Source: Tricharina praecox
Lineage: Eukaryota
Direction: 5' to 3'
Assembly: GCF_024521635.1 (NCBI RefSeq)
Contig: NW_026250415.1
Span: 124,001-188,000, forward strand
Length of the DNA: 64,000 nucleotides
Shown: one piece after another, positions 1 through 52,298 of the stretch
How positions within the stretch are numbered: position 1 is the first letter of the stretch
Layout: each line of letters begins with the position of its first letter
Notes under the pieces: model-generated
What the model saw: only the letters and a program-made list of their open reading frames with translations
Databases searched by the model: none
Told to the model about the DNA's origin: nothing
Translations under genes and position numbers: made by a program

Positions 1-1172
1 AGCTGCAGCAGCCATCATCCACCGGACGCAGCAAGACAGGCGAAGAGAAGACGCGGAGTCTCGGAAAACCATCAGCATCACCATCAGCATCGGCATCCCA
101 TCCATTCGAAGGAAGGAAGATCAAGAAGAAGACGAAGCAGAAGAAGAAGAAGAAAAGAAAAGAAGAAAGGACACCCCACTCCCCCTTACCCCATCCAATC
201 AATAGCAACTGCAAATAGCCCCCCTCATCCCCCCGGGGGCCTGCTAGCCGCCATCAAAATTCACACCCCCCCCCCCCCCCCCCCATTTCCACCCCCATTT
301 CCACCCAGCTCGATTATCCCAATACGCTTTCTCCCTCTCCCTTTCCACATTTCCTGGAATTGCCCCCGGCTACGGCTTCTGAGCCCTGCCCGCCCGCCTG
401 TCTGCCTGCCTGCTTGCCTGCCTGCCTCGTCACCCACCGCCATTCGTCCATCAGTCGTACCAAACCATCCTTCCATCCATCCATCCTCCATCCGAGAGAG
501 AGAAGAAATATCGGCACCGTTTCAATCCGCCCGCGCCTGATTTCTCCTGCGGCGCATTGCTGCTGCACCTGCCATTTCCTGATCTGCCTGCCACCTGTAC
601 AAACCTACCTACTCTACTCACTCACTCATTTACTCACTTCCCTATTCGACTGTCGGCCTCCCCCGTCAGAGTCAGCAATTCCTCCAGCAAACAAAAAAGT
701 GCCTCCCCCCCTCGATTAAGTTTCTGCCCTTCCGAAAATACTCCCAAAAGTGACCGCCAAATCGACATCGTTTCTCGTGTCTTTTACCCCTATCCGATTC
801 CGTGTATTACCCCCCGCCGACTCCCACCGCCCACCATCGCTACTAATCGGGCTCGGCATCCGCACTACTGCCATTTCAGACGACATCCGGTAAGGGTAGA
901 CGCTGCTCTACTCGGGCGTGTCCATCCTACTAACGCGCCGCCCTCCCTCCTCTTCATCGGTCGCCCTCCCTTCCAACTCCCTCTAACTACCTACACTATC
1001 TACCCCCGATTACTACCACTACCATCAACACAACCACATCTCCTCCTCCACCACCTCCTCCTCCCCCGCCTCCCCCTCCCTCCTCCCCCACCCTTCCTCC
1101 CTTCCCACCCTCCCCTCCCCCTCCCCCTCCCCCCCAACATCCCCTCTAGCCAACACACCGGACAAGAGGGAG

Positions 1173-13320: not shown

Positions 13321-14728
13321 TTAAACAGCCAACCCCTTTATCTTTCCCTCCAGGCTCCTCCACTCACCGGTCTTGACCATATCCACCAGCCCCGCCATAA
13401 TCTCTGCGCCTTTCACGAAATCCTCTTCGTCCAGATACACCTGCCCCGAGACGCGCGTCCAGAACACGCCCTTGTACAGATAAACCGCCACATAGGTCCC
13501 ATGGGCATCCAAACTATCCGTCAAGAAGGTGACCACCTCACCTCTCAAGCTCTCCTCGACCTCATGGAGTTCCAACGGCAAGCGGATGTTAAACATCGCC
13601 ACCTCCCCCGCCCCATAGCTAGGCATGATGTCGGTTCCCAGCCGCTGACGGAAGATCTCCGCGCCCTTTCTCGCAATGTCCCAGGTGTACTGCATGATCT
13701 TCTGCTCACCACCCAGTCTCTCGCGCACAGCGATAGCCGCCGGAACGGACAGATAGCCACTGGAGTCAACCGTTCCCACAAACGTAAACATCTTCGCCCA
13801 ACCCACGTCGCCCTCGATCTGCGGGAGCGGCGAGATCACTGCTCCCCCGGTCTTCGGCACAAATCCCCAACTAGTCGGCAGCGTGCTGCGGATCAAGCTC
13901 TGGTTCCGCTCGGGCACGTACAGGAACGCGCAGCCGCGCGGCGCATACAGCCACTTGTGGCAGTTGCTGGTGAAGAAGTCTGCGTCGAGCGCCTGCATGT
14001 CGAGCGGCATCTGGCCGACGCTGTGGGCGGCATCGACGAGCGACAGGATGTGGTGCTTCTTACAGGCGGCGACGAGGCGCTCGAAGGGGAGGCGCACGCC
14101 GGGGAGGGAGACGATGGCGTCGAAGACGGCGAGCTTCACGGTGCCGGCGGCGGCGGTGATCGTCGCCTCGAACACGGAAAGGAGCGCGTCGTCCGTGATC
14201 GGGAGTTGCACTTCGACGCGGAGGGCTGAGGCGGCGGTCGACTCCGCGACGTACAGGACTGTGTTGCCGCATGCGCCGTAGATGAAGTCGAAGTAGAGGA
14301 TCTTGTCGCCGGGGGCCCACTCGAGGCCGCGGAGGACAATGTTGACGGCGGTGGTGGCATTGGGGACGAAGACGACGGTTGCGGGCGGTGCGTTGACGAG
14401 CTTGGCGAGGGCGCTGCGGGATTCGGCGAGGAGACGCGGGAGGTTTGTGCGGATGAAGGTGTCTGGGCGACGCTCGGAGAGGTGCTGGAAGTGCTGGTAG
14501 ACGCGGGTCACCGGTTCGGGACAGCTGCCGAAGGAGCCTGCGTATGTGTCACTTGGAGCGGAACTTGAATGGGGTGGAGAGCTGGTTACCATTGTTGAGG
14601 TTGATCCAGTCATCGTCGAACTGAAAGTACTTGCGCATCTCGCGGCCGAAGTTGGGAACGCCTTCCGCGGTGATGTCGGCGACAGCGAGCGAGACCGCAG
14701 TCTCCATTTCGACACCTTTCATAGCCAT
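13321..14728 (-). CDS. egt2: PLP-dependent class V aminotransferase-fold C-S lyase, hercynylcysteine sulfoxide lyase (Egt2)-like; exons 14728-14590, 14537-13321
   Basis: Spliced N-terminus FGREMRKYFQFDDDWINLNNGSFG. Motifs NATTAVN, VDAAHSVG, SNCHKW (PLP lysine), FVGTVD and RVSGQVYL. Confidence 0.85.
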
Positions 14729-23244: not shown

Positions 23245-23924
23245 TATCGAAGACGGATTTCTCCGTAGTGCCATCCACCACTCGACCGTTAAGGGGATGT
23301 GTCACAGTATAGGACTGGTCGTGTCGTACCTATCTCACTCACTATGGTTCGATGCGATAATGGGGACAATGCGTGTGAAATAGCTAGAACATGGCAAGTG
23401 CGTTATCCTGGTCCTGTTCAAAATCCCGTGTACCTCGTAGATATGCGACATGTAGGTACCGTATCGTGTGTTCGATCTCGAAGAATGTGTTGCAATATAT
23501 TAGTCACGGGTATTTACCCTATCGTCTATACTTTCGGAGGCTCTCGGCTTCTCTCCTCAATCATATTCCTCATCATTCACAACGGAGTTGCGGTGGGCGA
23601 GTATGAGTGACCGCTAGTGCAACGGAAGGAGCCGATAATGTTCCGGTCGAGTGCATGTAGGTGACTCGGCATGCGGCTCTTTTTTTTCTTGGATGTTGTC
23701 CTTGTGTCATCTCCTTTCTTTCGTCAACGTGTTCCTCTTTGCCGACAGAGAGGACCTGCGGCCTACAAATCCCTTCCCTTATCCCATTTGTCTTCCGTTC
23801 CTCATTACTTTCGGTCTCTGTCACCGAACCCTCTTCTTCCACGGGCTGTACCTTTCGAGCTTGTCACGGTCAAGGAGCTTGAGCTCAGAGACTGGTGAAA
23901 GCCTTTTTCCACATTACCGCCACC

Positions 23925-26900
23925 ATGTCAGTCTGCCCGCCGCACACTCCCTCCTCCGGACCTTGGAGAGATCACATATTGACACAGTCCTCTTCCAGGC
24001 CGGCGCTCGTAGATTCCCCACAGATCGCTTCAGCGTCGCTTCTAAATCCATTACCGCCGTTATTACGATTGTACAACTGGCCGTTCCTCGCCGCATACCC
24101 TGCGTTCTTCAGCTTCTATCTCCGCCAGGAGACCTACGATAAACATATACAGAGCCAGGAATGGACGGTCCTCTACTTCGGCACCATATTGACGGTCCAA
24201 GCGCTCATATGGCTGGGATGTCACTGGAGTATAGGCTGGAGAGCTATGGCGACGGGCAGCAAGGTATGGAACGCACGGCGTCTCCTGCGGCGCGAGACCG
24301 GAAGAACAAAATTCGCTGCGAGTCGATGGTGTGCTGATACGGGTTGTAGGCTACACGAGTGGAGGACGCGAAACAGATCAAGGTCATCCCGGTGGCGAAC
24401 TCCGGTGCTGCCGACATTTGCAATCTGATTCACGATAAGGTTCGTTGTCCCCTCGCATCGCGTCTCTCATTTTGGTGCTGATGTGCTGCGTGGGGGGTCT
24501 GTAGTCTGGGGGTAAGGATGAGATTTCTTTTCTTTTCCAGAAGCGTCGCTACATCTACAACCCCGAAACTGGTTCCTTTGCGCCTCTCGTCTACCCGATC
24601 GATGCTGCTCCTACGCTCTCCCAGTTCCAGCTATCCAAGGGTCTTCAGAGCGACAAGGTGATCAATCACCTGCTTCACCACTATGGCGACAATACGTTCG
24701 ATATCCCGGTTCCCACGTTCTCGGAGCTCTTCCAGGAGCACGCGGTCGCACCTTTCTTCGTCTTCCAGATCTTCTGTGTCGGTCTTTGGTGCTTGGATGA
24801 ATTCTGGTACTATTCGCTCTTCACGCTGTTCATGCTGGTCGCCTTCGAATCTACGGTTGTCTGGCAGCGTCAGAGGACACTCACCGAGTTCCGTGGAATG
24901 AGCATTAAGCCGTACGATCTCTGGGTGTTCCGCTGCGGAAAATGGACCGAGATCCAGAGCGACAAGCTTCTTCCGGGCGATTTGGTCTCTGTCGGTCGCA
25001 CGAAGGAGGACTCCGGTATTGCCTGTGATATGGTCCTGCTCTCCGGAACGGTGATCGTCAACGAGGCTATGCTTTCTGGAGAGTCCACGCCGCTTCTGAA
25101 GGATTCCATCGCGCTCCGCGCTGGCGATGCTACCCTTGAGCCCGAAGGAATGGACAAGAACTCGCTGCTCTACGGCGGTACCAAGGTCCTGCAGATCACC
25201 CACAACACGGCAAACGAGGAGGAGTCAATTTCGGCAAGTAGAAACGGTGTTCCCACTCCTCCCGATAATGGCGGTTTGGCTGTCGTTACGCGTACTGGAT
25301 TCGAGACCTCGCAAGGTTCCCTCGTCCGCACCATGATCTATTCGACGGAGCGTGTCTCGGCCAACAACGCCGAGGCGCTGCTGTTCATCCTGTTCCTTCT
25401 CATGTTCGCCATCGCCGCGAGTTGGTACGTCTGGACCGAAGGTGTCATCAAGGACCGCAAGAGGAGCAAGCTGTTGCTCGATTGTGTTCTCATCATCACG
25501 TCTGTTGTTCCCCCGGAGCTGCCTATGGAGCTGTCTCTGGCGGTCAACACGTCTCTCGCGGCACTTGGAAAGTACGCGATTTACTGCACCGAGCCGTTCC
25601 GCATTCCGTTCGCCGGACGCGTCGACATTTGCTGCTTCGATAAGACTGGCACCTTGACCGGTGAAGATCTCGTCGTTGAGGGTATTGCCGGCATTGGCCC
25701 GAAGGGTGACCACAAGCAGTTGAAGAAGGTCGAGACCGCTGGACTAGAGACCACCTTTGTCCTTGCCACCGCCCACGCCCTTGTCAAGCTCGACGAGGGC
25801 GAGATCGTCGGAGATCCCATGGAGAAGGCCACCCTTCAAGCTCTCGGATGGACTCTCGGTGCCCGCGATACTCTCACATCCAAGGCAACCACGCAGATTC
25901 CCGGCAAGGGTTTTGCCGTCGCCTCTGGTGTTGTTCAGATCAAGCGTCGTTTCCAGTTCTCTTCCGCGCTTAAGCGCCAGTCCTCCGTCGCCACAATCAT
26001 GGTCGCCGGCGGTAAGAAAGCCACTTTCGTCGGAGTCAAGGGTGCCCCCGAGACGATCCGCAAAATGCTCACGCATGTGCCGGACGACTACGAGGACACC
26101 TTCAAGTACTTCACTCGCATGGGATCCCGTGTCCTCGCGCTGGGCTACAAGCAGGTGACTACCGACGGCGAGATGAGCATCCAGAGGGTCAATAGCCTTA
26201 GCCGCGAGGAGGTCGAGTGCGATCTTACTTTTGCTGGTTTCTTGGTCCTCAGCTGCCCGCTCAAGGATGATGCGAAGAAGTCCGTCCGCATGTTGAATGA
26301 GAGCTCGCACAGGGTTGTCATGATCACTGGTGATAACCCACTTACTGCCGTCCACGTTGCCAGGGAAGTCGAGATCGTTGATCGCGATGTTTTGATCTTG
26401 GACGCGCCTGAGGATGAGAACTCGCCACACGAGTTGGTGTGGAGGAGTGTCGATGAGACCATCATCATTCCCGTCAAGGCATTAGACCCCCTGGACCCGA
26501 AGATTCTGAGGGATAATGATATCTGCATCACTGGATACGCGTTGAGCAAGGTCCAGGATCAGCCTTATCTTGTCCAGCTCTTGAAGCACACGTGGGTTTA
26601 CGCTCGTGTCTCGCCCGTTCAGAAGGTATGTTCCACTCGCGTGGAAAATTACGAGATGATGATGCTGATGCTAATCTTCTTTACAGGAATTCATTCTCAC
26701 CGTCCTCAAAGATGCCGGATACACCACGCTCATGTGCGGAGACGGAACCAACGACGTCGGTGCCCTCAAGCAAGCGCACGTCGGAGTCGCCCTCCTCAAC
26801 GGATCCGAAGAAGACCTCCAGAAGATCGCCGAGCACTACCGCGTGACCAAGTTCAAGGAGATGTACGAGAAGCAGGTTTCGATCACCAAGCGTTTCAACC

Positions 26901-28078
26901 AGCCCTGTCCCCCTCCCCCCGCCCATATCGCCCACTTGTACCCTCCCGGAGCCGGAAACCCCCACTACCAAGTCGCCATCGAGCGCGAAGCTACCAAGAA
27001 GGGTGTTCCCGTCGAGCAGTTCGCTGCTCGTCTCGGCCACACGGCGATCGAGACGGTTGTCACCCCCGGTGCCCGTGCTCTCCAGAAGACGAACAACCCC
27101 GGCCGCAACACCCCGCAGCAGCAGGCGGTCGCCAACCAGGGCGCCGCGCTGGCCGACCGGATGATGGGCTCGATGATGGAAATGGAGGAAGACTCCGAGC
27201 CGCCGTCGATCAAGCTCGGCGACGCCTCTGTTGCCGCACCGTTCACCAGCAAGCTCGCCAACGTCATCGCGATCCCGAACATCATCCGCCAAGGCCGTTG
27301 CACGCTCGTCGCCACCATCCAGATGTACAAGATCCTGGCGCTGAACTGCCTGATCTCGGCGTACTCCCTCTCGGTGCTGTACCTCGACGGCATCAAGTTC
27401 GGCGACGGCCAGGTCACCATCTCGGGCATGCTCATGAGCGTGTGCTTCCTGTCCCTCTCGCGCGCTAAGTCCGTCGAGAAGCTCAGCAAGGAGCGTCCGC
27501 AGCCCAACATCTTCAACCCGTACATCATCGGCAGCGTGCTCGGGCAGTTCGCCGTGCACATCATCTCGCTGATCTACATCTCGCGCTACGTGGCGGTGCT
27601 CGAGCCCAAGGACCCCAACGTCGACCTCGAGGGCGAGTTCTCGCCCTCGCTGCTCAACTCCGCTATCTACCTCCTGCAGCTGATCCAGCAGATCTCGACC
27701 TTCGCTATCAACTACCAGGGCCGTCCGTTCCGCGAGAGCATCAAGGAGAACCGCGGCATGTACTGGGGCCTTGTTGGCGTCGCCGCAGTCGCCTTCTCGT
27801 GCTCGACAGAACTCATCCCCGAGATCAACGAGAAGCTGAAGCTCGTGCCGTTCACGGACGAGTTCAAGATCACCATGACGGTTACTATGGCGCTCGACTA
27901 CGCCGCCTGCTGGGTCATCGAGAAGGTCCTCAAGGCGGCATTTAGTGACTACCGCCCTAAGGACATCGCCGTTAGACGCCCGGATCAGGACGAGAAGGAG
28001 CGTAAGAGGAATGAGGAGGAGAAACAGGAGAAGATGAGGGTCGAGATGGAGAAGGCTGGGCTACAGCAGGCGCAGTAG
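23925..28078 (+). CDS. spf1: P5A-type ATPase Spf1/ATP13A1; exons 23925-23926, 23999-24263, 24350-24439, 24505-26625, 26687-28078
   Basis: Motifs LSGES, PPELP, DKTGTLT (phospho-Asp), KGAPE, MITGD, MCGDGTNDVGALK and KLGDASVAAPFTS. Confidence 0.97.
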
Positions 28079-30299: not shown

Positions 30300-32520
30300 A
30301 TGGGTACGTTGCTTCGTTTCTCGTTATGTCGTACAACCGCTGCTGTTGGCCGTTGAGACGCGTGATGCGTGCGCTCAACGGTCGTCTTCGCCGCCGCCGT
30401 GCGTGCTTTGGACGTGTCGTGTGTAGCGAGCTCACGCCCTCTTCCCTTCCCCTTTCTTCTTCTCTGCCCGATGTACTGCACTCGTTCTATTTCTAGGGCG
30501 GGTGTGAGTATGGGGGGTGGTGATGCGGTTTCAAGCGCAAGCACCCGAGCGAGAGATAGAGAGAGAAGAGTTGGTTGGGGGTCGGTTCTTTATGGGGAAT
30601 TGGGCTGTCGTTGTTGGGTGCTGGGCATCGGCTGCGGTTTCGGCAAACTGGGGATCATCCAGTGGTGTCTGTCACAAATTCAAAGTCCCTGGATCTCTGC
30701 TGCACCACGTCACCCTGGCCAATCCAATCCTCCTTCGCTCCTACGCTGCTATAACGCAGCAGCTGCTGCCCCCTCATCTCAGCAGCACTATCCCCCCTTC
30801 ATCTACCTTCCCCCAACTAACCCCCCCTACCCCCTTGTCTCCTCCGCCCATCCTCGCCATCTACATCTCTCATCACGTTCTGCTCATACGCCGTTCTCCT
30901 TCCCATCGATACTGTCTGTTTGCTTTCTCGACGCTCTCATGCTTGCCGCTCTCAAATCTACGTTGACTGACATTCTCCCGGCTGCTGCGACAATAGAGAA
31001 CGGAAACCCAGAAATGAGTGTTGTCGAGTCCCCCTCGTCTCCTCCCCCTCCGGTGCCGCTCGTCGCGTCAACGAACCCCAAGGCCGCCGCCCAGGCTGCC
31101 GCCGCCGCTGCCGCAGATGCGAAGAACATCGTTAGGCGAAAGCTCACTGGCTACGTCGGTTTCGCCAACCTGCCGAACCAGTGGCACCGGAAGTCTGTAC
31201 GAAAAGGGTTCAACTTCAACGTGATGGTTGTCGGTATGTCTTGCCCTGAAACGGAGATTTCCGCCGCGCGCATTCCTCACTCGCCTGTTTTCGCGCGGCA
31301 CACGTGCCCTGCATGATTTGTGATGGATGGCTGATGTTTTGGGCGTCACGACTTGCAGGTGAATCTGGTCTTGGAAAGTCGACCCTAGTCAACACTCTGT
31401 TCAACACTTCCCTATACCCCCCGAAGGAGCAGAAGGGCCCGTCCGCCGACATCATCCCCAAGACTGTGGCCATCCAGTCGATCTCTACCGAGCTCGAGGA
31501 GAACGGTGTCCGTCTGCGTCTCACCGTGGTCGACACCCCTGGATTCGGAGACTTCGTGAACAACGACGAGTCGTGGCGTCCGATCGTCGACAACATCGAG
31601 CAGCGCTTTGACGCCTACCTCGAGGCCGAGAACAAGGTCAATCGTATGAACATCATCGACAACCGCATCCATGCGTGCGTCTACTTCATCCAGCCTACTG
31701 GTCACTCGCTCAAGCCCCTGGACATCGAGGTGATGAGGAGGCTTCATACCAAGGTCAACTTGATCCCCGTCATCGCCAAGGCGGATACTTTGACCGACGA
31801 GGAGATTTCTGCGTTCAAGCTCAGGGTATGTTTACGTGCACGTGTGAGATGGGTGAGCGATCTGGAGCTAATTGAATTCGACAGATTCTCGCCGACATTA
31901 ATCACCACAAGATCCACATCTTCGAGGGACCCAGCTACGATCTTGACGACGACGAGACCATCGCCGAGAACAACGAGATCATGTCGAAGGTTCCCTTCGC
32001 CGTTGTCGGAGCCAACAACGAGGTCCAGTCCGCCGACGGACGCAAGATCCGCGGTCGTCGCTACCCCTGGGGTGTGATTGAGGTCGACAACGAGGAGCAC
32101 TGTGACTTCGTCAAGCTGCGCCAGATGCTGATCCGCACCCACATGGAGGAGCTCAAGGAGCATACTAGTAACATGCTGTACGAGAACTACCGCTCCGAGA
32201 AGCTTGCCGCCATGGGTGTGGAGCAGGACCCGTCGGTGTTCAAGGAGGTCAACCCCGCCGTCAAGCAGGAGGAGGAGCGCACGCTGCACGAGCAGAAGCT
32301 CGCCAAGATGGAGGCCGAGATGAAGATGGTTTTCCAGCAGAAGGTGGCCGAGAAGGAGAGCAAGCTCAAGATGAGCGAGCAGGAGCTATACGATCGTCAT
32401 CGCGAGATGAAGGAGCAGCTCGAGAGGCAGAGACTCGAGCTCGAGGAGAAGAAGCAGCGGATCGAGAGCGGCCGACCCCTGGAAGAGAAGAAGGGCCGGA
32501 AGGGGTTCTCGTTGCGTTAA
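30300..32520 (+). CDS. cdc3: Septin Cdc3/AspB; exons 30300-30303 (inferred), 30997-31233, 31359-31825, 31885-32520
   Basis: [24 protein letters not shown]-loop [25 protein letters not shown]-terminal coiled coil and KGRKGFSLR end. The first 4-nt coding exon ATGG|gtacgt is less certain. Confidence 0.93.
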
Positions 32521-34258: not shown

Positions 34259-35207
34259 ATGTCGACTCCCGCCGCCGCAGCTCCCCCTGCCGCTCAGCCG
34301 CTGACCGTGAGGCTCACCAACCTTGCGCAGACGCTGCAATTTGCGTGGTTTGTCGGGTAAGTTCTCTCCCATCCTGCTCAACCAGAAGTATCATCCTGAT
34401 CTGATTCGTTTAAAGACACTTGACGCTCCTCACTACTACCCTCCTCTACACTTTCTCGATCGCAAAGTTTTCGTGGAACACCACCGGCGCGAGCATCTGC
34501 TACCGTCTGGCGTTCCTCAGTGCCGCCGCTACCTATGGCATCGTCGTCTACAAGGCCTATCGTGCTAGGTTCAGGAGCGGAAACATGCCCACCGGACAGC
34601 AAGGGGCTATCAAGATCTTGGGCGATGAGAATGTGCAATACCTTCGTAGGTCTCAGCAGAGGATCGGTGGGGAAAGGATAGTGTCTAATGATTTATAGTG
34701 ATGGCCTTCACCTGGCTCTACTGCAAGCCCGTGTTCCCCGCGCTCCTGCCCTTCGCCGTGTACAGCACCTTCCACTTCCTGACGTACCTTCGCACGAATC
34801 TGATCCCGACGATCACGCCTACCGCACCGGGGGCGCCGCAGCCCGCCATCGCCGAGACGATCGCGCGCTTCGTTAAGAAGAACTACGACGCCAGTATGCA
34901 CCTAGTCGCAAACCTGGAGCTGTTCCTGTGGGCGCGCGTGTTCCTGTACTGCCTCGTCTTCCAGAACTCGTGGACCCTGCTCGTCGTCTACACCGTCTTC
35001 CTCCGCGCAAGGTACGCCCAGAGCGTCTTTGTCAGGGACGCCATGAAGGGCCTCGAGCTCAGGGGCGATGCCCTCGTTACTGACTCGAAGGTCCCGGAGG
35101 GCGCGAAGAGCGCGTGGACTGTCGCCAAGTCGCTTGTCAAGAGGTTCGGTGAGGTCAGCGATGTTGGAAAGATGCTCGGTGGCGGGCAGACTGTCAAGAA
35201 GGAGTAA
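34259..35207 (+). CDS. pom33: Pom33/TMEM33 (Tts1) ER and nuclear-pore membrane protein; exons 34259-34356, 34416-34645, 34699-35207
   Basis: LAQTLQFAWFVGH, AAATYGIVVYK, DENVQYL, LLPFAVYSTFH and FLRARY are Pom33-family motifs. Confidence 0.9.
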
Positions 35208-41021: not shown

Positions 41022-44000
41022 ATGGCACCGATGATGATCACCTTTCTTCTCTTGCTTGTGATTCCCTCGGGATCGGTCGTGGCGGCGGCGGACGACGGCG
41101 ATGACATGTCGAATAACCTGTTCTCTGATTTGGCGCCGTATGTAACTCCACGGGAGGCCGAGACCCCGCGTTCTGTCTTTGTACTGAGGTTCGGCCATGA
41201 TAACTAGGCTACTGACGCTCTTCGGCGAGCAGTTTGCAAAGCAATACTTGAGCCAGTCGAGTATGTTGACACTCCACCTATCGTTCGGTTTATCCTCGGG
41301 CGTGTAGTGATCCGATAGACTGACCAGCCAACGCCGGAAAGTGAATTGGCTTGACAATGTCATATTCGCGATGGCACCCTTAGGAATCATTACGGCTATC
41401 GTTGGCGCAATCCGGGTCGGCGGCCCCTCGTGGTTGAAAGCACTGATCGGAAGGGCTCGCGAGAACCGCGCAACCGTCGAGGTGGAATTGATGTCCTCAA
41501 CCTCACACGAGGTGTGCGAGCTCTGGAACGGGCAAGGCATTATCAGGACGATGGGAAGACCGGAGATTAAGCAGATAATATATCTCAAATCCGCGGACGG
41601 CACCGACACGGGGGAGACATTCGGGCTACATACTGTGGAGAGTGCGATGCAAGCCGGTCATCTCGAAGCCAGAGGTATGCGTTCCAGAACATCTGATGGC
41701 TTTTGCCGCCAGTGCCCAGTGACTTCCGCAATTCGCTGACAAGTGTTCCCAGAGGATGGTATCTTGGCCACACCCAGCATGCTTCCAGTGAAACGAAATT
41801 CTCCAACCGAGGACTTGGAGCAGAACAGTCCAGCACCGGATCTCAACAACGTACGACTGGCTTCCAATATAGGAGGCCCCCAGGCAGCCCCAAGCATTTC
41901 GCTGAACCTCCACGGCGGCAATAAGGTCAGCGAACTGTATGCTGCGGCGATTTGCGGTCTAGTTCTCCAAGTCGGCGTGCTATTCTATTGTGGAGCTCTA
42001 GTCTACCTTCCGGCCCTTCTCGAGAAACTACCAAAGGACGGCGTTGGATCATGGCCATTTCCGGTTCTGGCCACCGGGACCATCGCTCTCTTTATCGGCA
42101 TGTTCCTCTGCTCGGGCATTGTGGAGAAAAGCACCAAGGAGACGGCATTCATGCTAAAGCACCATGATGATACTCCGGTAAAGCAACCCAGGGATTCTCT
42201 GCCTACTGCAGCTGCCCAGACCGGAGGACGGGATGATGATGATGCTTCGATAGATCAACCCGGGGATTCTCTGCCTACTGCAGCTGCCCAGACCGGAGGA
42301 CAGGATGATAATGATGCTTCGGTAGATCAACCCGGGGATTCTCAGCCTGCTGCACCCGTCCAGACCGGAGAACTAGATAATGATGATGCTTCGGTAAATC
42401 AAGCCGGGCATTCTCTGCCTGCTGCACCCGCCCAGACTCAGACCGGAAACCAAGAACTGAAAACTCCGGCGAAGGCTCCAGCGAAGCAGCCCGAAACCGT
42501 CCGCATACTATGGTTGCAGACATCGCACATAGTCAGTGACCAGACGTTTGACTCATTCGTCATTTTCGGGAAGCACGAGTCTGACCGCATTCTAACGTCC
42601 CGAAGGGACAATGACCTCGATCGTACGAAAATCTCCCGCAAGACCTCAAATGACTCGGACCCGAATATACCTAGTAGCCCCCCGAAGGGGTTATGGGACT
42701 GGGTTAGACGCAAAGCACAGTGGATCGCCTCTTTCGAAAATGTGACCGTCTTTGGAACATCTTTTGGACTGGCCGGTTTTGTTCTTCAGTTTCAGGGTCT
42801 CCGCGGTATGAACTGGTCGGCTTCGATCGCTCAGCTTATAGCCGTTTCTCTCATGACGGTCTGGCGTGCGTGGCTCCGTCGGTATCTCACCGAGACTCCG
42901 ATCCCCAGGCAGGTTCCTGCCCAGCATGAAATGGATTGGCTAGCATTGTGGATGGCAAAGAAACTTGGAGACGACGAAAGTGGAGGCATCCATTGGCCGG
43001 CGGACGACGAAGTACTTGGATGAGAAGCCGAGGAACTGAAGGAGCGTCTGCAGCGAGACTTCGTCCAAGAGCAACGCGAATTGCAATCGGTTCATTCTGG
43101 AGGTGAACCGGGTGGACCTAGTTTGCCAGCCCATGCTGAGACTGACTTTACCCCCCCGCCGGCGGAGCGATTGATTTGGAAGATTCCCACAGATGCCCGA
43201 AATTTAGCGTACTGCGGGGAATACAGCGTGCGCGACACAAATCGATCCTTCATGGAGATGGATCCACCAACCGAGTACACAGACGCACAACGCGCCATGA
43301 AAGTACGGCAGAGATTGGGGCAGCTCACAAGATGGCCGGGACAAGCAATAGAACCTTCGGTTGCTGTCGCGAGAGCTATCGGCGTGACCTTAGATACGCT
43401 ATTCCCACACGATCACATCGGTGCCGATACGAATGTTAAAAACGTGGCCGAGAAGTTCTCATGGTTTCTGAAAGTTCAACTTCACGATAAAAAAGCCGAA
43501 AAATTTGAAAGGATCGAGTTTCATGCTTACAAAAGCCCCGGGGGAAGGTGGAAAGCTGATGGTGCGGAGATAGAGGCAGCGGTGTCTCTGTGGCTTTTTC
43601 ATATCCACGAGATGCGCGCTATCTCGCTTCAGGAGATGGTTTCTAAGGGAGAGGCAGCGAAAGGGTCTGGGACAGAGAATGATTGGCTTGAGAAAGACGT
43701 GGAGTTGAGCCAGAAAATTGTTCGGCTGCTAGGTCCAGGTGATACCAGTCTGCGGAGAGACATTGGCTGGTGGATCGGCAATGATGTCGGACTTGCTCTC
43801 CACTTAGGCGGGCTTCCCCGCGATGAAATCGTCGGCACCAAAGATACCCCAAAAGGATTTCCTGGATTCTCGGGACCGATCGGGTTTCTTGGATTGGAAT
43901 CTGAAGAGCAATCTATAAACATAGGTAAGTTTAGCAACGTCCGGAGTCATCTGATCATGGGACTGACAATACTCGTTTAGATCCGGGGCAATCCGTTCTC

Positions 44001-47000
44001 ACCGTTAACTCAGATGGATTGCTTGAGACTTTACTGGCGCAGCACATCTTCTCGGCTTTCATGTGGTCGATTGCGAAGGACGAGCGAATCAACTTTAAGG
44101 ACGACACTTCTGTTGTGTCCTTCAGCGAATACAGGATGGAAGACCCTGACACACTACTATCGTTGAGGCTCGAAAACAAAATACTTGCGGGGATGGCCAA
44201 AAACATACAAGCAACGGGGTTGTGCAGTTTGCAGGAAGCATACCTGTCCATCGTTCCGCCACTGAGTTACGCCAAAAGGCTACCAATCCGGTCTATGGTC
44301 GACTTTGTGAGGCAACAGATGAAGGGCCCAGAGTTGCTGGGGCTTTGGGAAAATGTGGTGCCGGTGTACTTACGACTTTATCAAGAATGCAAGACTTTTG
44401 GTGAAGGGCATCCGGTTTCCTTGCAGGCGACTGCTATCTTGATAGATGTGTTCCTGTCTGTCGCCGACCACTTGAGCCTACGCCGATCCCAACAAACACT
44501 GGACGGCATCGAAAATTTACAGGAGCTACAACATGCGATGTGGAAGGAGTTGAACCCCAACCAAGAGCCCGCGGTTCATCCGCCTCTATCCGGTTATCGA
44601 GTCATTCATCGCTTCGCATTTTTATACAAGGTCCAGCAACGACTGGATGTAGGGGCATGGCAGAGTTTGGGACTGCACTCTGCCTCAGTGAGTAGCCAAG
44701 CGTGGTTAGATGAGCAGGCACGACGTCGGCAGCAACAGCGAGGCGATCAAAGGTCTCGTGGATCCCCCGAAGGCGTATACGAGTTGTTCGAACCCTCACC
44801 TTTTTTTGCAAAGATTATTGAGATTCATTGGCATGAACTACGTGTCTCTACAATCACAGCCGACGCGACAAATGTGAATGCAACCGATATCCTGGGATGG
44901 TCCCCGATTCACTATGCCGCAATGCTGCGAGATACGATGACTATACAGAAATTATTGCAGCTTGGTGCAGATCCGAACTCCGTCGACGTGTCTGGAAGGA
45001 CGCCTTTATATTATGCTGTCGCAAATTGGAATCGTGAGGAACACGAGGTAGAAGAAGACGAGGATGATGGAGAGGATATATGGGCCCTTATAAGAGCTGG
45101 GGCAGATCTGGAGATTTGTGGGAGGGATGGAAGGGGATCCCTTCATTGCGCAGTCATGAATGGGAATGCCGTGGCGACGAACCTACTCCTTCAGGCTGGT
45201 GCGAACATCGAAGTGGCAGACAATTTTCGACAGAAGCCAATACACTGGGCCGCGTACAGCGGAGATGGGGATGTGATTGATATTCTGTTAAGGAAGGGTG
45301 TCTATGTTGGAGCTCGGGACGGATACGGACGAACTGCCTTACACCTAGCCGCAGTGACCGGACAGGCCGATGTGGTAACGCAGCTATTAGAGTTGGAAGA
45401 TGTCGAAAATGACCCGAGAGACCGAGCCGGAAGAACTCCATTGCACTTAGCGGTACTATCCGGAGACTTTCCGACCGTCAAAGCTTTACTTAGTGCCGAT
45501 GTTGATAAGGAAGCGAAAGACCGAGACAAGAACAATCCCCTGCACTTTGCAAGTGCATGCGGACACAAATCCATCGTCAGAATTCTCCTGAAACGTGGTA
45601 GCTTAATCGAAGCCCAAAACCGCGAAGGATCAACGGCATTGCACATGGCGGTTCGGAATGGCCAGCTTGATACCGTGAGGTTTCTCCTCACCCGTCATGC
45701 CGAGATTGAACTCAAAGATGAGGTTGGATATACTGTACTTCAACACGCAGCCTCTACGGGAAACGTCGCTATGGTTCAGTTGCTCCTGAAAATGCGTGCC
45801 AAAGTCAATACCTCGGGAAAAATTAGAACACAGGGAGGGGCGAGGCTCACCGGCAACACCAAATTCAACTTCTGCTGTACACCCCTCACGGCAGCGGCTG
45901 CAGGAGGTCATGGCAAGATAGTCCGGTTACTCTTGGAAGCTGAGGCCGAAGTCAATGCCCCAGGCGACATCGCAATCTCGGGCAGAATCAGGGTCGCCGG
46001 CAATGCCAGGGTTAGCGTCTACACTGGAGCACTCTCGGCAGCCGTTGGGGGCGGATATACGGAGATTGTCCAGATGCTTTTGGATGCTGGAGCAAAAGCC
46101 ACCGGAAACCCCGCAGATCGCATCGAAATCAATCGCGGGATCACCGCCATCGGCGCAGCCGAAATTAACGTCGATTATACTACACTCGATATTCACGGCA
46201 GTGTGGAAATTGGCGGCAATGCCGTTCTCAACGCCTACCATGGAGCACTTTCTGCTGCAGTTGGAGGCGGTCATAGCGAAATCGTCCAGTTACTCTTGAA
46301 TAATGGAGCCGAAGCCAATGGTTATCCCCCGGGCGGCATAGAAATCCATGGCACGATCAGTGGCTCCGGAAATGCAATACTCAACATTGACTATGCGAGT
46401 GTGCAAATTCATGGATCCTTTGTAGTCGACAACAACTTCACGATTAACACCTACCGTGGAGTACTCTCGGTAGCGGCTGCAAGAGGCCTTAGTGATATTA
46501 TCCAGTTACTCTTGGATGCCGGAGCTGAAGTCGATGGCCATCCTCCGGGCAGCATAGAAACCCATGGCGCGTTCGTTGGCTCCGGCAATGCAACATTCAA
46601 CCTCGACTGTGCTAGTATCTCGAGGAGTGGAGCGAGTACGGTCAATGAAAACGCTACGTGCAACACCTACCGTGGAGCATGCGCGATAGCGGCCGCACGA
46701 GGTCATGATGATATAGTCCAGTCGTTCATAAAGGCCAGAGCCGCACGCAAGTCCATAGCCACCGCCCCCATAAGCTCCATCGCAGGCGCAACCCAAGCAG
46801 CCATAACCAACGGTCCCGACGAAATAACTCAGCCGTTACATGCCAACGAGATGGACGAGGGCCAGGAAGAAGACGACAACGTAGGACCTAGTGGGGGGAC
46901 TGGAGATGAGGTGGATGGCACGGAGGAGGAGGGGGGGGGGAAGGGGAATGAAGGGGAGGGGGAGGAGGCGGAGGGGGTGGTGGTGGCCAAGGAGGGAGAG

Positions 47001-47030
47001 AGAGCTGAGAGAGATGCAGCGGCGACGTAG
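41022..47030 (+). CDS. Large (~1900 aa) membrane-anchored ankyrin-repeat protein; exons 41022-41137, 41208-41260, 41342-41674, 41753-43924, 43981-47030; internal TGA at 43021-43023
   Basis: Signal-like N-terminus and the fungal motif NNLFSDLAPLLTLFGE...FAMAPLGIITAIVGAIRVGG...ELMSSTS..VCELWNG. Several hydrophobic segments and many ankyrin repeats (GRTPLHLA type). Spliced length 5724 nt is in frame. Confidence 0.85.
42165..42450 (+). repeat. 72-bp (24-aa) coding tandem repeat, ~4 copies, inside the ankyrin gene
   Basis: QPxDSLPTAAAQTGG(R/Q)DDxDASxD-type units start at 42184, 42256, 42328 and 42400. Confidence 0.9.
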
Positions 47031-47216
47031 CTGTGCAAAGCAGCGCAAGAGGTGGGGATGTGGCGAGGGAGATCTATGTTCGAATGTGGAGGAGGAGGCA
47101 TGAAGGCAAAGGCAATGATTCAGTTAAGACGATTTAGCGTATTCTAAAATCTGACACTGATGAGTGAGCTTCGCGGGAGAGTTCGAGTATTCTACAATAA
47201 CACTGGTAACTACCTA

Positions 47217-48749
47217 CCCTTGTAAAAAAAAGGGGGGGGTATTTTTAACGGTGGAGCGACTGTTGTGCCATTATTTTGTTTTCAAACCCGTAGGAAAAGT
47301 AAATACCACATCGTGATAGTTGAGAATCTCACACATGTCCACTTATTGACCCATAGAAGCAATTCAAAACATTGTACAGTCCGTGTTGGATACAGAGACG
47401 TGTCGCTAGTTTATAACGAAGGGAGGGGATATACAGTTCACAGGCTTTTCCCGTGAAAATTGGGAGCCGTAGTACAAGTGATCCTGCTTATAGACAAGGA
47501 ACTGGCCAGAAATTCCCTCTGTAGTTAAAACAAAGCGTTTAAGTGTATTAAAACGTTGCAGCAGCGTTTTCTTGGCATTTTCTTGGCATTTTCGAACTGT
47601 TGAAACTATATCAGAGATGAAACTGGGCTCGAGTTTTCTCGCTTATGCAGCATTTTTCACATTGGTCTTGAAGCACTAAGCACATGGATTTCTATTCTAC
47701 TAGTACTACATACGAGGCCAGCGGCCAGTATCCACGGCGGCCAGTATCCAGTATCCAGTATCCAGTATCCAGTGTCCAGTATCCAGTATCAAACTATACA
47801 CGGCGGCCAGTATCTGCAGCGGCTAGACAAGTATTACTGCAAGGTGAGCTACCTATAAGAAACATGAGCTATTAGCGAGAGAAGCTATCGGGGAAAGGAG
47901 GAGCTGCGGTGAGAGTAGAGTTGCGGCGGGAGGGGGAATAGCATTTGTGGCGGGAGGGGGAGTTGTGGCGGGGGAGGAGAGCTATGAGACTGAGGTGCTA
48001 TCAGCGGCAGTAGTAGTTGCGGCGGGCGGGGGAATAGCAGTGGCGGAGGGGGAGGAGTTGCGGCGGGGGAGGAGGTGCTGGGGGAGGAGCTGCGGTGGGG
48101 GAGGAGTTGCGGCGGGGGAGAAGGTGCGGCAGGAGAGGAGTTGCGGTGGAGGAGTGCTTCAACATTCACTATCCCTATCTAGGCGGGCCAAACGTTTCGA
48201 CTCTTTCACTACTATTATTGCGGCCGATTGCAGCTACCGCAGTTCCTACATCACCCCTTGACTCAGTCATTCCTGTTCGATGACTAGAGTCATTTTTCAT
48301 CCCCACTCCCACCAAACTCCCATTACTCCCTCCCGTGGCAGCTCACCCATCGCTCCCCCACACCGGAAAACAGTAGAAAAATGCCAAGAAAACGTTTAAA
48401 TTGTCGAAACGTGACGACAACGGTAGAAAAATACCAAAAAAACGCTCAAGTGAGCACCAACCATATATCTCGTACTTGTGTTTTTATATTTCCACCAATT
48501 CCTGTTTATTTAGGCGTTAGATCAACGTATTACAAGCTCACATATTGTCTAGCTTTATGCCGAGTTTACAATTTAAAATGGGTGTACTGTCTATCATCAT
48601 TTTAATTCCGCATCGGTTTTACGTTGCTCATATTATTCTAGATGCAATAGTTGCGCAATACCGCGGGGCCGCTTGTGAAATCTAATGATCGCGCAACCAT
48701 TTCCCCACCCACTGCTCACGTTTAAACCCCCCCCTTTTTTTTACAAGGG
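47217..48749. mobile_element. Non-autonomous DNA transposon (1533 bp) with TIRs CCCTTGTAAAAAAAAGGGGGGGG
   Basis: Left TIR from 47217, reverse complement ending at 48749. Flanked by TA on both sides (extendable to TACCTA). No transposase ORF. Confidence 0.85.
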
Positions 48750-49432: not shown

Positions 49433-49936
49433 TTAATGATGGACGCTCCGCTTGTGCTTATCCCACGTGCTCTTCCTCGCAAAGGACTTGTAGCAGTGGG
49501 GAAAGGTGCACGCGAAGCGCACCCACGGCACGTGCACGTCCATGTGCTCGACGAGATGACTGCGTTTCGAGCAGAGGCGTTTGCAGTTCGCCGTAGAAGA
49601 CGTCCACTGGCAGGCGAGGGTGTTGGTTTTGCTGACGCTCTTCGTGGGGTCGGTCGGCGGGATGCGCCTCGCGTGGCTGTTCTTTGCGTGCAGGTTAAGC
49701 TCGGCGATCGTCGGGAACTGCTGGTCGCAGTTGTTCCAGCCGCACGAGAGAACGGGTTGCACAGTGCTGGTGCTGGTAAAATTTGGAAGTCCGTGGAAGA
49801 AACGCGGCGGCGGCGGTGAAGGCGGCGGCGGAGGCGGAGGGGGTCTTTGGTCCTGGTGGGGATTTGGGAGGAAAAGACCCACGCCGGCAGGATGGGGGGG
49901 TACCCCGTAGGGCGTGCAAAAGATATCAGGGTCCAT
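49433..49936 (-). CDS. Small three-C2H2 zinc-finger protein resembling the PacC/Rim101 DNA-binding domain only (167 aa)
   Basis: CGWNNC...HAKNSH; TNTLACQW...KRSHLVEHMDVHVP; CTFPHCYKSF...HKRSVH. Compare PacC TNNLNLTCQW...KRDHITSHIRVHVP. Confidence 0.75.
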   Translation of the reverse strand: MDPDIFCTPYGVPPHPAGVGLFLPNPHQDQRPPPPPPPPSPPPPRFFHGLPNFTSTSTVQPVLSCGWNNCDQQFPTIAELNLHAKNSHARRIPPTDPTKSVSKTNTLACQWTSSTANCKRLCSKRSHLVEHMDVHVPWVRFACTFPHCYKSFARKSTWDKHKRSVHH

Positions 49937-52298
49937 GGCTGTCAGTTGAAACTCGAGGGAATGGTTTCCTTAAGAAGTGAAAGAAGAAGCTAATTATCAT
50001 GGTCCATGGCTGTCGGTCAAAACTTGAGCGGATGGTTTCTTTACGAAGTAAAAGAAGAAGCTACATGAATTATCCCTGGTAAAGTTTTCCCAACGTTTCA
50101 ACGTCTCGTAGAATTCACGGTGCGCAATCAGGGCTTTACCAGTTTGTTGAGAGGGATGAACCTATTGGAAAGATTTTCGCGTGATGCTTTGGGGACCGTG
50201 AGAGTACCAAGTTAGTATACTCCGATTCAACTGGTTCGTCAGTGACATACCTATACAACGGCGTGGGACCCGCAACCGGTGCACCGCTTCAATCGCATCA
50301 TCAAATATCATTGTACCATATCTATGGCGGTTATGTATTAAAGTCGAGGCACGTGAGCCGGCAGATATCGGTGGGATCCTTTAGCGGGTGAATTAGGTTA
50401 GCCTTTTCCCCATGCAAATGTATATACCCCACAGGCAACCTAAAGGATATGAGCTGCTGCAAGAATGTGAGGAAACTATCTTCAATCATTCTATTTCCTT
50501 CTGATCCGCGAAGCTCGTCTGATACCAAGCTCTTTCACCTCGTTCGATATGTTGGTGTAGGATATGTGGGAGAGGAGCGTACCCCAACAGTTTGTGGGGC
50601 CTTTCGACCAGAAATCCCGAAAGAGGTGGCGTCATCCGACTGCATAAGGTCACGCCAGAGTGATATTTCACGACGACGGTCCGTATTTCAGCAGTTTAAC
50701 TTGTCATCCGGACACGTGGGTGAGGTGTGTGCGGGGGAAGACTTACCATTAAAAGCGTATATATGAGCCATCACTGTGAAGTGCTAGCGCATTTAAGGAG
50801 TATAAAGCTTAACTCTATCTCCACCTCTGTTTCCCAATAAAACCCCTGAAAACCCTATGCTTCGGTGGTGTATTTTTCAGCCGATTGCTTATGAAGCTCA
50901 GCATTATATTATAATAGTGATTGTGTGTCCGAAATATCCTCTGCATTTCCTCTCCTGCGTCGTCTTCCTTATACACTAATGCTACATCTCCGCCGTTTGT
51001 AGACCGCCGGCATCGCCGAAATGCGGAAACACAGGTTCGAGGTGCACCATCTTTAACCTTCGCGGCACATACCTACCTATCCGGTACTTCCGCCAGTCAT
51101 CTAAAGAACTGTCCGGCGAACGAAAATCAAGGCCGCCCCACGGGGCCCCGCAGACTATTCCATTAGAGCAATCCTCGGAAGTTTCTTTCTACCGAGGCCA
51201 CGCACACCACTGGCTGGAGCTGCCTACCCGACCGCATGGGCACCCGGGCTTCCGGGCAATGGAGATTGTTTCGGTACATCCGCCAATCCGACCGATGAGA
51301 TATTCGCACGTCTCGTCACTCGAGGGCCGAGCTGCACGTCCGTTTCGCGGTCTGGTGGCAGGCAGCGAGACCTGAACCATTACAGCACCAGGCCCACCAC
51401 CACGGTGTCGGTCTACCAAGGCGCAGTACAGATCAACGGTTCGTCGGTCGGGATCTATCCCGACCAGTCTAGTGCATACCTAAAAGTGGTCTGGCTTGGT
51501 CTATGTAGAGTAGAACACTGCCTCCCATACGCACATGCCACCGGCGCAAGATCAAGCTCAAGCTCAAGCTTAAGCACCACCACCACAGCTACCGCGGGCG
51601 AAGCTGGCATGAACTGCCGCCTCGGCCCTCAATTGCCGTAGCCACTGTACCGACTAGATCGCCACTTGCCGTGGTCGCCGGCACGCAGGACTTTCCGGTT
51701 CGACTGCGATCCATCTACCACTGATAGTCTGATGCCGTTCCCCTCCCCTCCCCTCCTAGCGAAGCCCTCAAGTTCCCCCCGTTGACTGCGCACACCTCCG
51801 GGCGAGAAAAACGTTTAACATTCTGCCTCCATCAGCAGCTTCAGGCCCCCAGTTGATACAAGCCAGAACAATTCGCTGGATGCAAGTGCACCCTGATACA
51901 TGGAAGGGCTTGGCGGCTAGTCTACCGGCACTCGTTTCAGTTCGCATTGCATCGCTTGGGTAGTTTCCGCGAAAGACATGCTTACTTCTTATCTGATAGA
52001 ATGATAGTCATGGAATGTGGAGGAAGCCACTCAATCAAGATTCACAGCTCTGGTGCGCACACTCGACTATACCTGTACTCCCATCGGCGCCAGCGGAATC
52101 GTCCATTCTAAATTCTAACTTCTAAATCGCAGCCAGCAGCCGGCCTCACCTTGCAGATTGCAACATTCGCCGAGTGCAAAGCCTTCTGCCACCGAGTGAT
52201 ATCGCATGAATCATGCACGAGTCCACATATCTCCATACATTTCCACCTTCTCATAACATTAGGCTGGATAATCTACAGTGAAAAGCCGCACATCTACA

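Follow-up and report, generated by a model that had tools for sequence, protein, structure and literature searches.

Ankyrin (ANK) repeats (PF00023, PF12796) are helix pairs with a recognizable sequence signature that stack upon one another and are connected through finger loops. In a survey of solved ANK structures, repeat length varies from 24 to 48 aa, and insertions cluster at the hairpins, where contacts are enriched as well (PMC4687027). In fungal NOD-like receptors (NLRs), ANK repeats with high internal conservation carry variable, selected sites on the binding face, the hairpin loop included (PMC4986451). HET-s-type amyloid motifs occupy the C-termini of HeLo-type effectors and the N-termini of NLRs and stay unfolded until triggered (PMC4518210; PMC9815663); the signature of the HET-s-related amyloid motif (HRAM) is given there as 21 aa with a Gly at position 19 and hydrophobic residues at positions 5, 8, 10, 16 and 18 (PMC4518210). 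The locus described here lies in a stretch of 64,000 nucleotides of the fungus Tricharina praecox (RefSeq assembly GCF_024521635.1, contig NW_026250415.1, positions 124,001 to 188,000 of the forward strand), hereafter the window, to which all coordinates refer. A large gene on the + strand (41022-47030) encodes an ANK protein in which the finger loops of the last five repeats are replaced by eight short units, and these units are predicted to build a second, beta-type solenoid beside the ANK stack.

The window contains spliced genes, and the insert-bearing region lies in the last exon of its gene, with an open reading frame (ORF) of 1003 codons at 44019-47030. The initial annotation, made by a model from the letters alone, had described the last five ANK repeats as carrying one, one, two, two and two extra units in the loop before the first helix; this description holds, and all eight strings that it quoted are found in the frame-1 translation of 45813-46670. 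It had printed 17 letters per unit, and the structural unit measures 19-21 aa. By eye, the array comprises about 14 ANK repeats, of which about nine, at 44880-45812 (+), are ordinary as judged from the translation and the Pfam ANK families; the five insert-bearing ones, delimited by translation and structure prediction, form a composite domain of ANK repeats and predicted beta rungs at 45813-46751 (+). Each insert sits in the connection from helix 2 of an ANK repeat to helix 1 of the following one, according to the Pfam ANK matches and the helix and strand map of the model described below, and the repeats are 49-51 aa long with one unit and 72 aa with two, in place of the usual ~33 residues with a short loop. 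Against Pfam the whole ORF matches ankyrin families alone (Ank, 2.2e-68 and 222.7 bits, cut-off 21.1; Ank_2, 2.3e-69 and 230.5 bits, cut-off 27.3), well within membership of both, and the insert-bearing region by itself still scores 59.7 bits with Ank. The three super-repeats of 216 nt, each an ANK repeat with a pair of units, can be aligned without gaps with 96 of 216 columns invariant; Tandem Repeats Finder reports no DNA tandem repeat in the insert region because the repeats are too diverged, and the pairs of units share between 12 and 24 of 44 insert residues. At the presumed core positions of the eight units, only one charged residue was counted by eye. An insertion of another kind, a 16-residue acidic stretch (NREEHEVEEDEDDGED) at 45030-45077, lies between both helices of ANK repeat 2.

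The unit pattern goes beyond what chance would give. A strict regular expression of the consensus matches five of the eight units and none of 120 other ANK proteins, while a profile made from the Pyronema group only, with no window sequence in it, finds the insert ORF as its sole match below E 0.01 (E 6.2e-10) in the six-frame translation of the window; among 258 ANK proteins used as controls the best E was 0.008, and the second best, P0155 at E 0.01, is a true relative. Long HMMER stretches in P0243, P0192, P0251 and P0165 were considered as inserts and rejected, being ordinary ANK repeats aligned across the insert columns. In two sequencing runs, X1 and X2, contigs run across the eight units, and none has a joint within 44019-47030; four GT..AG introns in other parts of the gene are skipped by contigs of these runs. 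The inserts are therefore not intronic and, as far as the contigs show, belong to the processed message. The kind of sequencing behind X1 and X2 is a guess, and only what their contigs bridge is used here. The initial annotation had named the lack of a transcript spanning the region as damaging to its proposal; the region is covered by contigs of runs with spliced forms of the gene. Neither run covers 46988-47400, from which nothing is concluded.

Relatives with such inserts are few. A HMMER scan of 1.84 billion representative proteins gave 10,960 matches at E<=0.001, from which three stand apart, namely P0124 (the window's own product), P0125 (244.7 bits) and P0126 (179.8 bits), with the ordinary ANK proteins of the same scan reaching at most 167.5 bits and carrying no inserts. 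A first word-based homologue search with the insert region had returned 293 matches, mostly ordinary ANK proteins, two of which (P0003 and P0007) proved to be insert-bearing; the ESM Atlas gave ANK clusters only, all below 0.85. In two profile searches of 5.8 billion proteins with a pair of units, 5 of 4,524 and 7 of 8,000 scored candidates matched, and the motif was seen solely inside ANK repeats, although these searches depend on shared 5-residue words and may miss remoter members. The family assembled in this way consists of 7 protein clusters: the window protein, P0125 and P0266 from Pyronema domesticum, the P0126 cluster (JGI), P0003 and P0007 (Logan) and P0155 (JGI/ENA); P0269 of Pyronema omphalodes was added by cluster look-up. 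All 7 clusters contain ANK as their only Pfam domain. On this sequence evidence, the composite is confined to a small fungal gene family that includes two Pyronema species. As the initial annotation had expected of a genuine element, the homologues keep the inserts: the 1-1-2-2-2 layout is found in P0003, P0155 and P0269, and in 16 unit pairs from 6 proteins the alternating columns are 80-100% hydrophobic, with the charges in the columns between. Core positions are conserved and hydrophobic, whereas those at the surface are variable. P0007 represents a subfamily variant in which the arcs lack Gly.

Public gene models of the family are mostly fragments, and the window protein itself is represented by 419 aa in the public set. 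P0125 is marked partial and P0266 starts within a unit, both lying on one Pyronema domesticum contig of 1,295,287 bp, and P0269 has one truncated ANK helix pair (..SISYRPLLLDNEVN..), which looks like the result of a mis-called exon. Pyronema domesticum has at least four pairs of units and the other members three; therefore repeat number seems to vary.

The fold of the composite was predicted with AlphaFold2 (AF2). Model 1, of 408 aa, includes three plain and the five inserted repeats and was computed from a 5-sequence alignment, with a mean predicted local distance difference test score (pLDDT) of 89.2 and a predicted template modelling score (pTM) of 0.88 (five models, pLDDT 86.9-89.2); model 2 is restricted to 190 residues, which contain six units but no more than two helix pairs (pLDDT 88.9, pTM 0.82), and its strand pattern is that of model 1. 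Within either job, the pLDDT values of the five models differ by no more than 2.3 points. In model 1 every unit has strands of 4, 3 and 5 residues, joined by arcs of 3 and 4. Unit 1 (KIRT / ARL / KFNFC), at 45819-45875 (+), corresponds to strands E97-100, E104-106 and E111-115, and unit 2 (DIAI / IRV / RVSVY), at 45966-46022 (+), to E146-149, E153-155 and E160-164. The pairs, likewise on the + strand, follow as units 3A (46119-46175) and 3B (46182-46238), with strands within E197-215 and E218-236, units 4A (46335-46391) and 4B (46401-46454), within E269-287 and E291-308, and units 5A (46551-46607) and 5B (46614-46670), within E341-359 and E362-380; pairs 3 and 4 show the same pattern in model 2, where 5A and 5B are drawn slightly differently and the last ANK helices are left out. 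The C-terminal region, for which the initial annotation had suggested a structure prediction, is in these models predicted with high confidence to have three-stranded rungs in its inserts.

A structure search with model 1 returned ANK proteins only; 6mol_A, for example, matches with Z 25.1 over 254 residues at a root-mean-square deviation (rmsd) of 2.4 Å, along positions 1..403 of the model, and the ANK part as modelled is canonical through all eight repeats. With model 2, searched against 48,161 chains, the 50 best matches are beta-solenoids throughout, with no ANK protein among them (Z 7.7-11.2). Examples are 4om9_A (Z 11.2, 139 residues, 3.2 Å), 4wa0_A (Z 10.5, 125 residues, 2.5 Å), 7o9p_A (Z 9.6, 139 residues, 2.9 Å) and 3syj_A (Z 8.5, 120 residues, 2.3 Å). 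Autotransporter passengers, tapirin, two-partner-secretion domains, yeast adhesins and ice-binding proteins make up 30 of the 50, at rmsd 2.3-5.1 Å, and hexapeptide-repeat proteins the other 20, at rmsd 11.5-12.4 Å. Beta-helices of the autotransporter, tapirin, two-partner-secretion, adhesin and ice-binding types are right-handed and those of hexapeptide-repeat proteins left-handed. Parallel three-sided stacking is proposed because the 50 best matches of model 2 are beta-solenoids; the predictions support inserts that are three-stranded rungs stacked as a parallel, three-sided helix, probably a right-handed one. Stacking, handedness and contact with the ANK helices were read from the structural matches and the strand patterns. 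No structure matching the whole composite was found among solved (PDB libraries) or viral predicted structures, and no Pfam family at E<=10 identifies a beta-helix sequence family in the inserts; a STAS domain at E 0.065, the sole PDB match of the unit-pair profile, was set aside as a chance match. The intramolecular beta-solenoid that had been proposed to run alongside the ANK stack is therefore supported at the level of prediction (three-strand rungs, solenoids in 50 of 50 matches), and the phrase "new hybrid alpha/beta repeat fold" is apt for the model, since nothing among the solved and viral predicted structures matches the composite.

When the domain is set beside described systems, its relation to each is partial. 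Like canonical ANK repeats, it has helix pairs that stack and bear the ANK sequence signature, and its model fits onto a stack of eight repeats, but the five repeats of 49-72 aa have one or two three-stranded rungs where the finger loop should be. With the HET-s and HRAM motifs the units have in common a length of ~21 residues, short strands, arcs with Gly and Asn and a three-sided rung; however, the eight rungs would stack within one chain, whereas HET-s contributes two per molecule and stacks between molecules, and the units are internal, lack the family match, the signature and the NLR or effector context, and differ in predicted handedness, the HET-s solenoid being left-handed. Right-handed parallel beta-helices (autotransporter passengers, two-partner-secretion domains, tapirins, fungal and bacterial adhesins) provide the best matches of the 190-aa model, but at 10-16% identity and with no sequence relation; their rungs are consecutive, whereas in the window's domain an ANK helix pair follows every rung or every second rung, which would give two solenoids interleaved within a single chain. 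The DUF3494 ice-binding proteins also have a three-sided beta-helix (7bwx_A, Z 8.3, 122 aligned residues, 3.0 Å) and carry a helix alongside it, but theirs is one long helix and not a repeat stack, again without sequence relation. The ANK, WD and TPR repeats of fungal NLRs are comparable to P0125, whose super-repeats are 83-85% identical with differences that cluster in the replacement of the binding loop (cf. PMC4986451); unlike them, the 7 clusters of the family have no NACHT or NB-ARC domain, and the repeats of the window protein are diverged (12-24/44).

On balance, and with some reserve, we favour the explanation that the inserts help to build a folded composite repeat domain and provide it with a variable recognition surface. 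According to this explanation, each of the last five ANK repeats would have, in place of its finger loop, one or two rungs in which three strands alternate with two arcs over 19-21 residues, and the eight rungs would stack in register into one three-sided parallel beta-helix alongside a normal ANK helix stack. Rungs of a beta-helix are spaced by 4.8 Å and ANK repeats by ~10 Å, so that two rungs per repeat (~2 x 4.8 Å) would fit geometrically. The last strand of an insert would connect to ANK helix 1 through two residues, and the return from helix 2 to the next rung would be made by a Pro/Gly-rich linker of 9-11 residues. The outward face round the middle strand would then be the variable surface, most likely involved in binding a putative ligand, protein or glycan, and it would take over the task of the ordinary ANK finger loops with a larger area that is flat and rigid. 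We infer this binding role from P0125, in which the 71-aa super-repeats are identical at 59-60 of 71 positions and variation is seen in 12 of 42 insert columns as compared with 3 of 29 ANK columns (Fisher p 0.08); in both units the variable columns lie along arc 1 and the middle strand and where arc 2 begins. The clustering of insertions and contacts at ANK hairpins (PMC4687027) and the variable binding face of fungal NLR repeats (PMC4986451) are in keeping with such a role.

The rest of the gene bears on how this domain is delivered. After removal of the observed introns the gene reads as a single frame in which a TGA at 43021-43023 (+) separates 599 codons from a further 1316. The upstream part of this ancestral gene, ORF A (41022-43020, +; first ATG 41022), has four hydrophobic 19-mer segments and introns at 41138-41207, 41261-41341 and ~41675-41752 (+), seen as joints in contigs of both runs; ORF B (43024-47030, +; 1316 open codons, first ATG 43252, intron ~43925-43980, stop 47028-47030) has no hydrophobic segment and consists of a middle region, the ~14 ANK repeats and an acidic tail. 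That tail is Gly-rich and lies at 46755-47027 (+), with a GGAGGG-type DNA repeat at 46922-46974; acidic C-terminal tails are also present in P0003, P0155 and P0269. P0004, a single protein of 1738 residues with ordinary ANK repeats, is collinear with ORF A plus ORF B, its residues 226-427 aligning with ORF A (E 2e-10) and 427-635 with the N-terminal part of ORF B (E 2e-05). Contigs from both runs start near the TGA, at 43018 and 43027; no joint that would remove it was seen in the X1 and X2 contigs, and the sole candidate 5' site found by eye is a poor one. The TGA could be a nonsense allele or could reflect an unseen intron, a second transcript start or readthrough. The initial annotation had placed the ankyrin domain on a membrane-anchored receptor: judged from sequence comparison with P0004, membrane anchoring holds for the ancestral gene, but in this genome it is uncertain, because the TGA parts the ORF with the hydrophobic segments from the ANK ORF.

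Two observations concern ORF A in its own right. Exon sequence at 41311-41672 encodes a conserved N-terminal module (..APLGIITA..LKALIGRA..ELMSSTS..CELWNG..) that is common to P0004 and belongs to no Pfam family; the module seems to be a membrane-associated domain of fungi, so far undescribed, that precedes ANK arrays. After the hydrophobic segments, at 42181-42435, there are about three tandem copies of an acidic and Pro-rich unit of ~24 aa (..DASIDQPGDSLPTAAAQTGG..), with a weak match to Curlin_rpt (E 0.0093, 16.3 bits, under the cut-off of 20.7).

Several points weigh against the composite binding domain and have to be set against its competitors. The fold has AF2 as its single source, working from that shallow alignment of 5 rows, and AF2 is documented to give confident yet unrealistic beta-solenoids for repeat sequences, although the authors of that study suggest that the bias may matter only for near-perfect repeats (PMC11795689). 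The Z scores of 8-11 lie only slightly over the background of 7-8 stated for the tool, Foldseek gave nothing for model 2 at E<=0.001 in the PDB or the viral predicted set, and a single rung per repeat, as in units 1 and 2, does not fit the geometry of two rungs per repeat. The contrast in variability in P0125 is statistically weak, coming from three repeats, no ligand is known, and the TGA at 43021 raises the question of whether the gene is intact in this genome. The bias of AF2, the shallow alignment, the lack of a Foldseek match and the poor fit of the single-unit repeats would also suit an AF2 artefact. In that case the inserts, although genuine and conserved, would be long finger loops of a flexible or hairpin-like kind, or a loose sheet, and would still offer a binding surface without a continuous beta-helix. 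The arcs without Gly in P0007 agree with it, and Gly and Asn at arcs would serve hairpins equally well, both being favourable in hairpin turns. Such an artefact is nevertheless unlikely: three strands, and not two, are drawn in all eight units and in both models, the models of each job are concordant, the repeats are far from perfect, the strict alternation of hydrophobic and polar residues in six proteins is what a single buried face would produce, and the 50 best structural matches are solenoids without exception. It is highly improbable that the gene is decaying, a functionless remnant in which the inserts are tolerated loop expansions. The TGA, which splits what is one protein in P0004, and the fragmentary state of most family members in public sets (the 419 aa of the window protein among them) could be read in this way, but ORF B is open across all its codons, it is covered by contigs of runs with spliced forms of the gene, and at least six diverged lineages share the layout and the core pattern.

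The proposal of the initial annotation itself was that the units are HET-s-like amyloid signalling motifs, and that the ANK stack templates a partner or its own copies into amyloid. Something can be said for it, since the units of 19-21 aa come near the 21 aa of the HET-s motif, the short strands, the Gly and Asn at arcs and the predicted triangular solenoid recall it, unit 1 shares a few letters with the putative HET-s string quoted there, and the ends of the predicted helix may be uncapped. By contrast, the motif searches do not bear it out: in Pfam at E<=10, five insert pieces gave no family other than ANK, matched weakly on a single piece that overlaps ANK helices, and no match to HET-s_218-289, and phmmer with unit 1 gave 0 matches at E<=10 among 177,635 PDB sequences, HMMER filters and short queries limiting the sensitivity of both. 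When the inserts were scored for the HRAM signature, 0 of 49 windows with the Gly at position 19 had all five hydrophobic positions, and five windows reached four of five, mostly over ANK helices; full matches occur in other ANK proteins at a background of 0.65 per 1000 aa (328,140 residues). The claimed closeness of unit 1 to the HET-s repeat ('IRT..AR..GN') is confined to that unit, being absent from the other seven and from the first unit in the homologues. The units lie inside ANK repeats 10-14, not in terminal tails, and are predicted to fold in cis; in the profile searches of 5.8 billion proteins the motif did not leave ANK repeats, no second copy was found in the window by the motif profile in six frames, and the low-rmsd structural matches are right-handed, opposite to HET-s. 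Nor does the genetic context favour signalling by amyloid. The gene, the 7 family clusters and 119 of the 121 window ORFs of at least 130 aa showed no NACHT, NB-ARC, HeLo or HELL domain, and these 119 ORFs yielded no gasdermin domain either; for NACHT and NB-ARC, the mark of fungal NLRs, Pfam gave no match in ORF A, ORF B, the exon at 41311-41736 or the family clusters. The effector partner with a matching motif (HeLo, HELL or gasdermin) that had been expected, the gene of which is usually a direct neighbour in Ascomycota, was accordingly not encountered within the window. HET-s-like templating is thus very unlikely, and the present evidence does not point to a new route of amyloid signalling as an alternative to NLR-borne motifs. 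A bolder variant, in which the pre-formed solenoid of eight rungs would act through an open end as a nucleus extending in trans, by stacking further copies or by converting the unfolded motif of a partner, is improbable to a similar degree and exceeds the explanation favoured here, which claims only a folded composite binding domain; if true, it would be an ANK-scaffolded device for amyloid-like templating or polymerization in a family linked, at least ancestrally, to a membrane domain.

As for the neighbourhood, no cell-death or NLR gene was recognized among the neighbours in the window. By Pfam, the neighbouring ORFs encode a protein kinase (1978-2760), a class-V aminotransferase (13324-14718, - strand), a P5A-type ATPase (23883-27465), a septin (31250-32517), a TMEM33/Pom33 protein (34692-35204), a C2H2 zinc finger protein (49436-49969, - strand), a ferric reductase (54078-56115, - strand), a HAD hydrolase (61620-62474, - strand) and a Glyco_hydro_cc protein (62806-63720).

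Taken as a whole, the locus most likely encodes a rare hybrid repeat domain that is a binding surface and not a prion-like amyloid signal. If the model is right, each 72-residue super-repeat adds to two solenoids at once, supplying the alpha-solenoid with one ANK helix pair and the beta-solenoid with two rungs, in a ratio of 1:2. No precedent for such an interleaved ANK and beta-solenoid architecture was found in full-text searches of the literature, and the modelled composite is a candidate for a fold not yet described. The composite would also lend itself to testing the contested beta-solenoid predictions of AlphaFold2, since its imperfect repeats are attached to a scaffold that is well understood. 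For this small fungal family, the composite would reveal a new means of making the ANK binding face larger and stiffer, which would be relevant to the evolution of repeat proteins and to designed binders.

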